DNA from: Eledone cirrhosa
Lineage: Eukaryota
Direction of reading: 5' to 3'
Length of the DNA stretch: 64,000 nucleotides
Assembly (NCBI GenBank): GCA_964016885.1
Contig: OZ024740.1
Coordinates: 368,032,001 to 368,096,000, forward strand
Part shown: one piece after another, positions 15,253 through 56,650 of the stretch
Numbering within the stretch: the stretch's first letter is position 1
How the letters are laid out: every line of letters starts with the position of its first letter
Made by a program: the position numbers and the translations under genes
Notes under the pieces: model-generated
What the model was told of the DNA's origin: nothing
The model's database searches: none
The model's input: the letters and a program-made list of their open reading frames with translations, nothing else

Positions 15253-17247
15253 ATTTATTAAAATAACAGATTAAAGTTTAAGCAAAGAATCACTGCTTTC
15301 ACCCTTAACGGGATCTTCTGAAACTAGCAGAGTCAATCTGTAAACGCAGAAGTGAATATTTCAAAAAACGTTGCAACCGGAGGAAGACAGGAAGACGATA
15401 CTTTGGTTCGTGGAAACGTTCCCTGGCAAAGAACGGGAAAAAACGAATATAATACGTCATTAATAGGAGCGGTGAAAAACAATTACGCGCAAAGACAGAA
15501 CCACGTTTATGGTATAAAAGAGGTCTTAGACAAATGTTCTCTTAGGTGGTTCATAGAGACGTTCTCTGGCGATGAACGAAAAAAACGAACATAATACGTC
15601 ATATGTGGAACGTAGAGAACAATTGCACGCAAAGACAAAACCACGTAAATAGTATAGAAGAAGTCGTAGCCTAAAATTCTAACTAGGAGACCGAATGAAT
15701 CTCCGCTTCAGAGTTAAGAACAAAGTAAATAAATACAGATGTAAAGGAATTACATAAATACATGCACGCATACAAATATGTACATACACAAGCATACGCG
15801 AAAACACTTACCATCGGTATACAAAACCACGCACATAAAATTATGTGTGTGTGAGTATGCGTGTATACAAATAAATAAATAATTAAATAAACGTATATAA
15901 ATAAATAAATACATATATAACCAGCGCACACACATACCTACATGTAAATACACAAATGTCGGAGACGTAAGTCAACCAAAACATGAAGTACACATATACA
16001 CACACCCTACATACGTACGAACCAGCATACTCACACAGACGCAAAACACCCGTATACACATACCCAAACCATATGTACCAGAAAATATAAAATTATACGC
16101 CATAACATATACAATCAAATATACGTACAAGAAGGTATACGTATCTTCACAAAACATACAGGTAACATATACTTACCTATGCAAATAAGTAATGGTATAA
16201 ACAAAACATATACTTAGCTACCACATCAAGACGTAAAATATCCACGTATAGATCGTACTATCCGTCAGGGTATAACGTGGGGCTGTAATGCAGGAAAGTT
16301 TTGTGCAATTTATGTTTACAAGCCGAAAATGCCTCAGATTTTTTTGTTTAAGATGTGGTCTGTGGCGTAGAGTATTTCCAGGGCCTCAGCGGCGCAGAGG
16401 TCACATGATCTTTTATTTCCGTTATACGATCTAGCCCTAGCTCGGATCTCGCAGTGTAACTTATATTGGGTGTGGTTGTCTTTTAGTCTCCAGATATAAG
16501 CTGAAAGTGACGTCATATTCCTTCATATAGGGTAACAAAAAGAATGGCTATGCACGTAAAGACGCTGCTTGAAACTATTGGCGGTTAACCCTATGTAGGC
16601 CCTACGGGACGTGGGTGTTTCAACCTTACATTTGTAGACAATGTTACTAGAGAGGCATTTCCCGGATAGGGGGCAATCAACCCGATTCCTACAATTACAG
16701 TTAGTACTAACTACAGGGTTGCACGTGTTCCTACGGCTAGGTAGTTTAGCTAAATTTGAAGTTGTGATGTTATGTGCAAGGTTACGAGTCGTAGAGTAAG
16801 AAATTTTAATAGTATTTCTATTAAAAATTTTACTATATTTATGTGTAGGGGAAAATGCCTCGTAATAAGGGAAATAAAGAGCTTAGCTAATGGTGTGGCC
16901 ACCTCCGTATTATATGGTGTGTTATACCAACAAATGCGACGGGTTCTATTTCTTCTAGGTCTATTTTCTTACTCTGTATATGCTACCTTATCAACAAATC
17001 CACTCCGAGCAAGAGCTTCATTGTAATAAGTGGAATGGTCGTTGAAAATATGCTCGTTAGTAGAAAGACGGGAAAGCCTAAACGAAACGTTTCTTACCAG
17101 GTTAAGGGTGAAAGCAGCGATTCTTTGCTTAAACTTTAATCTGTTATTTTAATAAATATTTGCTCTACGGTTCTTATATATTTGATATATATTTATCCTT
17201 ATCGAGCCGTCTTTGGATTTTAGTCTTCAAATTTATTATTATTACTA
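15253..17247 (-). mobile_element. Penelope-like element family A: 5'-truncated minus copy (15253-17100) plus inverted terminal arm (17101-17247)
   Basis: Decayed GIY-YIG region 16260-17100 (IVYKCKV..RAYIGLT..CDLC..ILNK); HHR at 15275-15325; (TA)n on both sides. Confidence 0.9.
15275..15325 (-). ncRNA. Hammerhead-like ribozyme, family A (CAGAAGA core)
   Basis: Minus strand: agttt CAGAAGA tccc gttaa gggt GAAA gca...tgc TT aaact. Confidence 0.7.
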
Positions 17248-17516
17248 TATATATATATATATAATGTATATATATATAAGTATGTATATATATATATATA
17301 TAGTTAAAAGAATAGAGGTGTAACACACAAGTTATTATATATTGGTAAACGGAATAGAAAATGCTGACAAATTGTTCACAGTTGAAAAATGGTTTAATTA
17401 GGAATAAAAGAGTATTAGTAATTGTATGGGTTAGTATTCAGTTGTGGTTTTAAGTTTTTAAGTTTTTACCGGTTGCGCATTTCTAAATGCTTTTCAAAAA
17501 TAATTTTGAGATAGAG

Positions 17517-17558
17517 TGTCCGTGTTGTTTGCTCTGATCAGAGCAAACAACACGGACA
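17517..17558. repeat. Perfect palindrome of about 42 bp abutting a TA tract
   Basis: tgtccgtgttgtttgctctga|tcagagcaaacaacacggaca. Confidence 0.9.
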
Positions 17559-17670
17559 TATATATGTATGGATATATATATATATATATATATATATATT
17601 TACATATATACATAAATATATGTATATATATATGTATATAAAAAATATATATTTACATATATATATATAT

Positions 17671-17905
17671 ATTTATTAAAATAACACACTAAAGTTTATG
17701 CAAAGAATCGTTGCTTTCACCCTTAACGGGATCTTCTGAAACTCCGAGTTTCAGAAGATACCGTTAAGGGTGAAACAGCGATTCTTTTCTTAAACTTTAA
17801 TCTGTTATTTTAATAAATATTTGCTCTACGGTTCATATATATTTGATATATATTTATCCTTATCGAGCCTCTTTGGATTTTAGTCTTCAAATTTATTATT
17901 GTTAC
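17671..17905. mobile_element. Family A minimal foldback: two HHR-bearing termini back to back
   Basis: HHR minus 17693-17743 and plus 17747-17796; no coding sequence; TA flanks. Confidence 0.9.
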
Positions 17906-17964
17906 TATATATATATATATATATATATATATATATATATATATATATATATATATATATATAT

Positions 17965-53471: not shown

Positions 53472-54113
53472 ATGTATATATATATATATATATATATATA
53501 TATATATATATATATATATATATATATATATATATATATATATATATATATATATATATATATATAGGTGTGTGCGTGTGTTTGTATTTATATATACACA
53601 TACATACACACACACATATATATATATATAGTTAAAGAAATGACAACACAAACACAGATGTAAACATACATAGACTTATTAACATCACGCTTAGGGCAAA
53701 GTGGAAGAGAGTTGGGCGCTTGTAACGTAAGACCTTCTTCAAGAAATAGAAAGTTCGGAAATAGAGAAAGAAAATGTTAGAACAACTGAGCCTCAAGACG
53801 TTGGGGTTATAGGCGAGTGTTTCATCATTCAGAAGTTGGGGATGAGGTCGAGAAACCAGTTGTATTATGATTGTGGATATATATGTTCCGATAAGTTGTA
53901 TTGAGTGTCTGAAAATTCGTTTGTTTTTCTGTTTTTTTCTTTTGGCTTTTTTGTATGTGCATGTGTGCAGTATATATGTATGTATATATATACACACAAA
54001 CACCCCCCACACACACATATATATATATATATAGATATATATATATATATATATGTATGTATATATATATATATATACGTATGTATATCTATCTATCTAT
54101 ATATATATATATA

Positions 54114-54665
54114 TAGTAATATTAATAAACTTGAAGACTAAAATCCAAAGAGGGTTCGATAAGAATAAATATATATCAAATATATAAGAACCGCAGAGCA
54201 AATATTTATTAAAATAACAGATTAAAGTTTAAACAAAGAATCGCTGCTTTCACCCTTAACGGGATCTTCTGAAACTAACAAAGTCACTCTGTAAATGCAG
54301 AAGTGGATGTTTCAAAAAACGTTGCAGCCGGAGGAAGACAGGAAGACGATACTTTGGTTCGTGTACACGTTCCCTGGCAAAGAACGGGGAAAAAAGAATA
54401 TAATACGTCATTAATAGGAGCGGTGAAAAACAATTACGCGCAAAGACAGAACCACGTTTATGGTATTATATTCGTTTTTTCCCGTTCTTTGCCAGGGAAC
54501 GTTTCCACGAACCAATGTATCGTCTTCCTGTCTTACTCCGGCTGCAACGTTTTTTGAAATATCCACTTCTGCGTTTACAGATTGACTTTGTTAGTTTCAG
54601 AAGATCCCGTTAAGGGTGAAAGCAGCCATTCTTTGCTTAAACTTTAATCTGTTATTTTAATAAAT
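54114..54665. mobile_element. Family A non-coding foldback (long end left, short end right)
   Basis: HHRs at 54226-54276 (-) and 54593-54643 (+); junction near 54463. Confidence 0.92.
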
Positions 54666-55311
54666 ATATATATATATATATAAATCTGTATTCCAATGTA
54701 ACTAAGTAGTCGCATTGGATATGGGTTTCGGTTTCTATAATAATAGTACTAAACAGTGTTTTTTGGACCCCTTTAGAAATAACCTGCTACTATAATAGCC
54801 CCAGTAACTTGTCTGTAATTCTGTACTACTTTGACCCCTTTAACTAAATTTTGTCCAAACAACACCACTAGAAGAATTTACTTCCCCCGCCAACCCTAAC
54901 ACGCCTCATTAAGCTAACTGCTGCCAAAACATTTCTCCTTACAATCTCTACTACTCTGACAGTCTTAAATCCTAAGACTCCATCCCCCTTACTCGCTTCC
55001 CTCTTCCTCTTCCCTTCCTACCTCCTCCTTTCTCTTATATCTAGTGTATAAAATATTTTCATATCATTCTACTACAAAGGTCTGACGACATGGTGTGTTT
55101 TCTTACAGTGTACCTACGATTTATGATAATATTTTTATATTATTCAAATAGCGAGGTATAGGTAACCCATACACTATAGAAACAATTGTTACCTAATAAA
55201 TATTTATACCCGCATTTCCGTTTCATAAACTTCTTCTTTATATATATATATACATAATTATATATGTGTGTGTGTGTATGTGTGTGTATAAATATATATA
55301 TATATCACTAT

Positions 55312-56354
55312 CTAGGGCGGGTAAAATTCCTGAGATCCATGGACGAGTTCTCTCCAGCGGTCTCTGATCCTCATTATCGCAGCCATGTCCTGCGTCTCCA
55401 ACATACCAGAGTCTGTCCTTAGGGCATAAACAAATATTAACCTTGGTCTTCCTCTTCTAGTGTGTCCATGTAGGGTCTCCCACAGGAGCACTGAGTGCAA
55501 TGTCAACTCTGGATGTCAGTGAGCATGTCCAGCTAACCTCAATCTCCTCTGTGTCACTTTTGAGCTGACTTTTGGGAGGCTCCCATACAGCTCTGAGTTT
55601 TTCATCCTCAGTGTATACTGATTAATGTTCAGAGCCATCCTCAGCATTCTCGTGTAGCACCCATCCACTATCTGAGTGAGTTTCTTGGTCAGTGTCCAAG
55701 TCTCAGACCCGCACAGACTGCACTACAGCAATGAAGAGGCGGATTTTCAGGTCTTTACGAAGGTCCGACTTCCACACCGATCTCAAGCTGTGGCACGCCG
55801 CCCAGGATTTGCTCAACCTCTCAACCACATCAGCTTCCGTATTCCCAATCTTTGCTCGCAAATACAGGAAGCCCTCAACCAATTCTAGCGGGTTCCCGCC
55901 TACATTAGTGATCCCCTCTGGCTTCTCAACATTCTCTACCAGATATTTTGTTTTAGTCTCATTCATTCTCAGCCACACACTCATCGACGCAATCTCAACA
56001 TCCCGCATCAAATCATCTGCCTCCTTCACAGTATTTGCCACCAAAACTATCTCGTGGACCGTTACTGCCTGATGAAGATATTACAGGCTTATGGAATCCC
56101 CAAGAAAATAGTGGACCTGATATCACTGCTCTACACCAACACTGAAGCCCAAGTCATTACACCTGATGGGATGACAGAGTTCTTTGAGATACTGGCTGGA
56201 GTGCTCCAGGGAGATACATTGGCTCCCTAACTTTTTATCATCGTAGTGGACTATTGTATGCGCCTTGCACTGGAGAAATACCAGGACTCTGGCTTTACTG
56301 TAGCACCGGCTGAGAGCAGGAGAGTTAAGGCGAAACATGTATCAGATGCTGAAT
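55312..56354 (-). mobile_element. RTE-like LINE, 5'-truncated with 5' inversion (55312-56058 minus; 56059-56354 plus)
   Basis: Plus part: AYGIP, GVLQGDTLAP*LFIIVVDY; minus part: MNETKTKY, FLYL, HGHTRRGRP. Confidence 0.88.
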
Positions 56355-56427
56355 ATGTATGTATGTATGTATATATATATATATATATATATATATATAT
56401 ATATATATATATATATATATATATATA

Positions 56428-56650
56428 GGAATAATAATAAATTAAAAGACTAAAATCCAAAGAGGGCTCCATAAGGATAATTATATATCAAATATATAAG
56501 AACCGTAGAGCAAATATTTATTAAAATAACAGATTAAAGTTTAAGCAAAGAATCGCTGCTTTCACCCTTAACGGTATCTTCTGAAATTTCAGATCCCGTT
56601 AAGGGTGAAAGCACCGATTCCTTGCTTAAACTTTAATCTGTTATTTTAAT
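56428..56650. mobile_element. Family A minimal foldback (long end left, short end right)
   Basis: HHR minus 56538-56586; plus copy 56587-56632 with core deletion. Confidence 0.9.

Follow-up and report, generated by a model that had tools for sequence, protein, structure and literature searches.

Pairing of one short with one long 3′ end in inverted Penelope-like element insertions of Eledone cirrhosa suggests coupled twin priming

Why should the two sides of an inverted retrotransposon insertion end differently? Penelope-like elements (PLEs) leave inverted copies that often carry a tail at one end only, and the origin of both features was posed as an open question in the account of the Hydra clade of PLEs (PMC8557442). 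A 64,000-nucleotide stretch of the Eledone cirrhosa genome (assembly GCA_964016885.1, contig OZ024740.1, positions 368,032,001 to 368,096,000 of the forward strand; hereafter the window) raises this question repeatedly: it holds foldback insertions, each made of two inverted arms whose 3′ ends face outward into (TA)n tracts, one arm ending short and the other long. The original prediction, made from the letters of the window, was that this asymmetry follows a strict pairing rule, produced by two primers acting at two defined RNA positions. We find that the pairing is real and holds across the genome, in elements that are new but belong to a known clade. It probably results from twin priming in which two fixed sites of a single RNA are used in a coupled fashion.

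We counted coordinates from the predicted hammerhead cut (after GCTTA) and designated the short and long 3′ ends S and L, respectively. Self-comparison of the window and mapping to its longest arm showed that all five insertions of the first family, A, consist of a minus-strand arm followed by a plus-strand arm, with both 3′ ends outward in (TA)n. The S end lies at +25 to +28, its last bases being shared with the TA tract, and the L end at +115 (+111 to +115 in the fifth insertion); the 87 nt from the S site to the L site form the tail (for example, 22152–22238, plus strand). The first foldback (15253–17247) joins an S arm on the minus strand, which runs from about −1810 to +28 and takes in the endonuclease end of the open reading frame (ORF), to an L arm on the plus strand from −30 to +115. 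In the second (17671–17905), the minus-strand S arm and the plus-strand L arm both stop at −46; either arm bears an additional G at the 5′ end, and the spacer between them is CCG. The third (19954–22241) combines a minus-strand S arm (−380 to +28) with a plus-strand L arm (−1766 to +115) containing the GIY-YIG end of the ORF at about 20366–21166. In the fourth (54114–54665) and fifth (56428–56650), the L arm is on the minus strand, to −234 and −44, and the S arm on the plus strand, to −170 and −37, respectively. Five of five tails-out insertions thus had one short and one long end, as originally described, an outcome with p ~0.03 under random pairing when taken alone.

The same asymmetry had been claimed for three other families, and it was found in each. 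The family B foldback (29291–33188) has a minus-strand L arm (29291–31903) that is a full unit with a frameshifted ORF for reverse transcriptase (RT) and GIY-YIG, and a plus-strand S arm (about 31916–33188); its tail is 65 nt, and the L arm's 5′ end (31865–31903), a read-through tandem, carries the final 39 nt of that tail a second time and continues into the 5′ untranslated region. Family G (26580–27142) has a minus-strand S arm ending at 26580, a plus-strand L arm ending at 27142 and a tail of 55–57 nt. Family E, whose tail is about 80 nt, contributes two foldbacks: one (19168–19340) with L on the minus and S on the plus strand and its pivot within the predicted stem II hairpin, and one (19424–19811) in which a decayed minus-strand S arm and a plus-strand L arm flank an unrelated central insert. 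A further family, absent from the original list, has a 49-nt tail-only L arm on the minus strand joined to a non-overlapping S-ended arm on the plus strand (54682–55238; compared with locus L276). Elsewhere in the window, two tail-only L arms of family E lie tails out at 5253–5424, both starting just after the S site with (TA)n between them; they are either two solo copies or one L/L pair. A tails-in palindrome at 53348–53475 belongs to a different repeat, whose two ends point toward one another over a short (TA)n.

End positions are bimodal genome-wide, at about 1:1. Exact motifs gave 11,196 S ends against 11,449 read-throughs past S for family A and 11,457 against 10,957 for family G; for family B, 1,510 S ends were counted. 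We then classified the first 70 of the 11,196 family A S ends, in contig order. An L/S foldback was seen directly at 44 and by motif coordinates at 4, one was S/S, 15 were solo and 6 were left untyped, so that 48 of the 49 typed foldbacks were L/S (p ~1e-13 against random pairing). The two motif lists alone gave 27 L/S among 32 tails-out neighbours; the other five comprised a true S/S (L102), a true L/L (L142), an L/S with internal read-through (L126) and two separate insertions. Among 30 family B loci, 16 were L/S (15 distinct), none S/S, 9 solo and 5 untyped. For family G, 17 of 30 loci had an L partner and none was S/S, the other 13 falling beyond the short reference; by motif adjacency, 38 of 44 were L/S, and of the six exceptions, five were inspected and one was a true L/L. 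A family-blind foldback scan of 464 kb (72 of 597 segments), in which only multi-copy families were counted because the scan cuts at internal AT runs and also takes in symmetric elements, found 10 family E foldbacks with a 76–81 nt asymmetry and no symmetric ones, together with further asymmetric families and several symmetric hairpins resembling miniature inverted-repeat transposable elements (MITEs).

The rule is thus near-strict (~96–98%), not absolute, and it covers inverted insertions only. With termini mapped and pair types tabulated in samples beyond the window, the ends proved to be bimodal and not randomly paired, as had been predicted; the strictness of the predicted rule did not survive, since S/S and L/L pairs exist. 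Solo, non-inverted family A copies are common outside the window, with S ends (15 of 70) and with L ends (7 of the first 24 read-through matches). We also consulted raw short reads (restriction-site-associated DNA sequencing) from two other samples under the same species label, a check that concerns the family as a whole and not the five window loci. Loose (AT)n ends occurred at S in 2,119 and 2,234 reads and at L in 550 and 618 reads, along with many different strand-switch joints, and contigs of a second organism contained both S and L ends.

What are these elements? Copy L126 of family A, natural and nearly intact, shows a unit length of about 3.26 kb and a single ORF starting 43 nt past L: 403 amino acids in frame, one stop, and 305 amino acids more. 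The ORF pieces had no direct Pfam match, and neither matched the PDB by sequence search. The ORF has 117 longer homologues at 33–46% identity; of four that were scanned, one had GIY-YIG and one RVT_1 above the cut-off. The predicted structure of the first 403 amino acids (pLDDT 94) had its best fold matches in L1 ORF2p and TERT. Family A displays the features of endonuclease-positive (EN+) PLEs, namely a single ORF with RT plus GIY-YIG at the C terminus, read-through tandems (pseudo-long terminal repeats, pLTRs), inverted 5′-truncated arms and one-sided tails, and the vast majority of the copies sampled have ends that adjoin (TA)n. Its motifs are RWR, DKT, a CNC-x5-C linker, CDLC and CKH; those of family B are DKT, a CSC-x5-C linker, CGLC and CPH; and the homologues have RW(K/R/T) and DK(T/S). 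The diagnostic motifs of the Hydra clade are given as RW(R/K), DKT, a CxCX5C linker, CxxC and CxH (PMC8557442), so that motifs and (TA)n targets would place families A and B there. The signature of the Neptune clade (CX2-5CxxC linker, DKG) does not fit, since the linker here is CxCX5C and the motif DKT. For families E and G and the family at 54682, architecture and ribozyme-like motifs suggest that they are PLEs. In themselves, the elements are unexceptional representatives of a clade that has already been described.

Five tandem copies (L126, L152, L155, L156 and L157) read through L into the ORF. Therefore, both L and S are internal, and the full RNA would hold two cassettes. The predicted type I hammerhead of family A, recognized by eye at 22077–22136 (plus strand), has stem I from −46, the core CAGAAGA...GAAA, not CUGANGA, and a predicted cut after 22123. 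By eye and regular expression, hammerhead-like cores and stems are predicted in A, B and G; Rfam searches returned no hammerhead match, nor was there one among the 150 of 243 matches listed. The predicted core lies upstream of S by 72 nt in A, 68 nt in B and 184 nt in G. A fixed distance between S and the ribozyme was considered and fails for G; the pairing rule is not tied to that distance.

Internally deleted family A derivatives recur (L051, L059, L024, L020 and L113; L056, L121 and L131): one deletion joins about −872 to −154, and others join the ORF start to the 3′ region. Non-autonomous copies are therefore mobilized and obey the same end rule. A family A subfamily (L011; loose read ends behind L155:1454) has a different tail after about +79, and the L end is therefore replaceable.

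How do two arms with different ends arise in one insertion? We analyzed the arm limits of the 44 directly seen family A L/S pairs. Junctions were distinct in 43 of them; with junctions varying among insertions, the rule does not descend from a single amplified hairpin. The S arm reached farther 5′ in 30 pairs and the L arm in 11. The L arm passed the S site in 29 pairs; in the other 15, it began downstream of S and had no sequence in common with its S partner. At 63 adjacent L/S junctions, BLAST-edge estimates gave overlaps of 1–3 nt in 25 and of at least 4 nt in 9, blunt joints in 8, insertions of 1–4 nt in 15 and longer insertions in 6, a spectrum as expected for end joining. Because ends are bimodal, pairing is non-random, junctions are independent and in 15 of 44 pairs neither arm could have been copied from its partner, we favor a reading with two primers. 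The predicted scheme, in which two primers act at two defined RNA positions and the truncated products are joined, fits every test that we ran.

Both arms also bear marks of a common source. Of 23 pairs whose arms overlap sufficiently, 21 had arms more similar to one another than to the median of the other copies (Wilcoxon p=6e-5), and in 4 the partner was the nearest of all; in L113, an identical internal deletion is present in both arms. The arms are also coupled in their 5′ limits. With an S arm that stopped at or after −47, the L arm stayed within that limit in 22 cases and went beyond it in 0, and when the S arm was longer, the L arm passed −47 in 15 of 22 and did not in 7 (Fisher p=1.5e-6). 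In a set chosen for arms ending at −46 with the extra G, 22 of 22 distinct foldbacks kept the partner within the limit. Both primers thus appear to use the same cassette.

The −46 position is the commonest 5′ stop, found in 13 of 132 family A cores, 10 of them preceded by G. Genome-wide, G precedes −46 in 1,249 cores, which were truncated there in 30 of 30 inspected; A or C precedes it in 1,009, truncated in 12 of 22 inspected. It is likely that −46 is an RNA 5′ end and that the extra G is a copied cap. The sequence at the site, TTAGTT, resembles an initiator. A fixed spliced leader, joined at −44 or −38 (each after AG), was rejected, as the upstream sequences differ and none is held in common. 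In family B loci L161–L190, 5′ stops cluster at the predicted ribozyme start, 61–72 nt upstream of S, as in A; no extra G is evident at these stops.

We therefore consider coupled twin priming, with both fixed sites on a single RNA, the probable explanation. In the likely course of events, one protein–RNA complex would engage both L and S and nick both strands of a (TA)n tract, which would have existed beforehand and would supply the primers, and the nicked ends would prime on the same RNA. S and L of one cassette would be engaged together, each aided by 2–4 nt of AT pairing. The S-primed cDNA would run ahead and the L-primed cDNA follow behind, either stopping at it or displacing it. Transcripts would start, probably capped, at −46 of the upstream pLTR, so that the full RNA would comprise two cassettes, one 5′ and one 3′; when the 5′ one is used, the outcome would be short hairpins ending at −46 and bearing the additional G, and when the 3′ one is used, long arms. 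The two cDNA 3′ ends would then be joined bluntly or through 1–3 nt of overlap and filled in to yield a tails-out inverted insertion, and extension of one end alone would leave a solo S or solo L copy. A protein dimer would be a natural candidate for the carrier; a dimer prediction for the N-terminal 403 amino acids scored 0.00, which carries no weight either way.

Several points weigh against coupled twin priming, or against the counts on which it draws. The genome searches covered a 3.0-Gb assembly, with samples taken mostly from the first 100 Mb of the window's contig, and end classes were curated by hand from BLAST output. Same-type pairs occur, one S/S (L102) and one L/L (L142) in family A and one L/L (L282) in family G, and one hairpin family of the generic scan (the C2 block) has two symmetric long/long copies; this family may be a DNA-transposon MITE rather than a PLE. 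Partner arms could also resemble each other because a single source locus supplied two RNAs, or because gene conversion followed. The extra-G set has four loci in common with the earlier samples, the G was readable from the partner arm in about 8 of the 30 inspected G cases, and a T at −47 is indistinguishable from read-through. Finally, L-arm stops are weakly enriched near S (16 of 44 at +15 to +45, p=0.02, the interval being picked post hoc).

One variant keeps twin priming on one RNA but lets S alone be programmed, L being primed in the manner of long interspersed nuclear elements (LINEs) through (UA)n, into which transcripts of L-ended copies would run and which would base-pair with the nicked (TA)n target; the place of L would then be inherited from source copies. 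L/S pairing and coupled 5′ limits would be expected under this variant too, and nearly every L end does adjoin (TA)n or (TTA)n, some with terminal TTA expansion. However, tandems whose template runs through L into the ORF (L126, L152, L155) still yield both L and S ends, the in vitro system from the lizard as described has internal positions for both sites (PMC11167929), and solo copies occur about equally often with S and with L ends. We regard this variant as unlikely.

In a second alternative, an asymmetric dimer would carry two RNAs, each subunit having its own, and one subunit would be committed to S and its partner to L. Overlapping arms would then require no strand displacement, rare same-type pairs would be accounted for, and transcripts of one locus would have variants in common. 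The two RNAs should, however, choose between 5′ and 3′ cassette independently, yet an arm limited to −46 had a longer partner in 0 of 22 cases in each of two sets, which makes this arrangement quite improbable.

In the self-priming or fold-back model, a strand folds and is copied into the inverted arm, and the endonuclease trims one end, leaving the tail on the other. Some junctions are near-perfect palindromes (−46/−46, −46/−42), and palindromes of this kind are the published argument for it, but they are explained by both arms reaching the same RNA 5′ end. An arm cannot have been copied from a partner that does not contain its sequence, so that the model fails for the 15 of 44 non-overlapping pairs; moreover, the copy must lie within its template, yet S reaches farther 5′ than L in 30 of 44 pairs despite having no tail. 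We consider fold-back copying very doubtful here. Inheritance from a few amplified master hairpins or an assembly artefact, to which a few exact duplicates (L169/L170, L227/L228) might point, can hardly be right, given the distinct junctions in 43 of 44 pairs and the S ends, L ends and strand-switch joints in raw reads of two other samples, which therefore do not stem from the assembly.

Coupled twin priming might also be the normal integration route of PLEs, an extension that we hold more tentatively, at somewhat less than even confidence. One complex would use a single RNA and two fixed sites, one per nicked strand, and copying would overlap by strand displacement up to the cap; a shared GAG(C/T)(A/G)C motif may be the positioning signal. 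This motif occurs 45–79 nt upstream of L in 7 tails out of 20, those of B, E and five more, compared with a mean of 0.37 and a maximum of 4 in 5,000 shuffles, although it was picked by eye and some of the families are possibly related. In family A, a comparable GAGCAC sits a short way downstream of L, where 5′ stops cluster a second time (+129 to +131). A conserved hairpin in the tail that would unite S and L was unsupported (z-scores of +1.6 to −3.4 over 20 tails, +0.6 for A). A search for an empty site with the flank of the fourth foldback (54114–54665) matched another repeat family and gave no empty allele. If the extension is true, the tail, inverted pLTR, junction palindromes and short ribozyme hairpins would all be outputs of a single reaction.

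The window contains other repeats as well. A decayed LINE at 8272–11968 (plus strand), which we take to be RTE-like, has ORF pieces for an AP-endonuclease, an RT and a C-terminal zinc-finger-like segment; decayed LINE fragments also lie at 12671–13377 and 22499–24265. Another retroelement, at 58413–61204, has a 627-bp direct repeat and a 561-amino-acid RT-like open frame on the minus strand. A SINE-like repeat of about 190 bp, often in inverted pairs, occurs at 2536–2942, 28262–28584, 36601–37055, 46062–46524 and 56703–56905, and is also found inserted in family A copies L014, L064, L109, L135 and L142. A young (97–99% identical) cluster of tandem and inverted repeats at 5428–7636 is probably another PLE-type insertion.

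The pairing rule, the coupled arms and the extra G bear as evidence on the origin of PLE inverted repeats and one-sided tails, and they contradict the published self-priming explanation. With more than 11,000 ends per major family, they become countable rules (L/S pairing, coupled 5′ limits, extra G at −46) that favor coupled twin priming on one RNA and that are directly testable in an existing in vitro system. If true, it would be a retrotransposon for which priming from each of the two target strands is directed to a programmed site. For annotators, there is a caution: many short, TA-flanked, MITE-like hairpins are PLE products.

The rule had been put forward as undescribed. In our literature search, we met neither a tally of how ends are paired nor a model of twin priming in PLEs, although older reviews may state the one-sided tail more strictly; the near-strict pairing and the signs that both arms come from one RNA were likewise not found. 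The one-sided tail (PMC8557442, PMC3846280) and two RT start sites (PMC11167929) are, however, on record in those papers. The inverted copy, the one-sided tail, (TA)n targeting and the two start sites are already published, as is half of the mechanism.

The closest relatives are Hydra-clade elements as described by Craig et al. (2021, PMC8557442), with an inverted 5′-truncated copy, a tail often at one end only and (TA)n targets. The elements described here share with them the short single RT-then-GIY-YIG ORF, the motifs, the (TA)n target and a putative hammerhead-like motif. They differ in their tails, 55–88 nt in A, B, G and E compared with 30–40 nt there, and, for family A, in the unit of about 3.26 kb and the non-canonical predicted ribozyme core; the passages of that paper on this clade hold no count of end pairing. 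In the Anolis Poseidon element PAc, both strands are nicked and extended in vitro, two RT start sites bound the tail, uncleaved RNA is used and the promoter lies in the pLTR, according to the main text of Frangieh et al. (2024, PMC11167929). The AT-rich target and two internal start sites are alike, and a dimer is predicted there; by contrast, PAc belongs to a different clade, and its start sites lie inside the ORF, whereas L lies 43 nt upstream of the ATG in family A. That main text reports no strand difference in start site and is without inverted products or a pairing analysis, on which its supplementary figures may bear.

The self-priming on an antisense template proposed for inverted pLTRs by Arkhipova et al. 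(2013, PMC3846280) describes a similar structure, with head-to-head inversion, junction palindromes and a tail on one inverted pLTR, but as set out there one arm must copy the other, which does not hold for 15 of the 44 pairs analyzed. The nearest mechanistic parallel is L1 twin priming, described in PMC11702581, in which the second target end primes internally on the same RNA and end joining yields an inverted segment; an extra G likewise marks capped full-length L1 insertions. In that account, the second L1 site is set by chance microhomology near the first cDNA end and the segments barely overlap, whereas in the Eledone elements both sites are fixed and the arms often overlap by hundreds of bases. 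Compared with L1, twin priming is here the majority outcome, seen at no fewer than 49 of 70 S ends.

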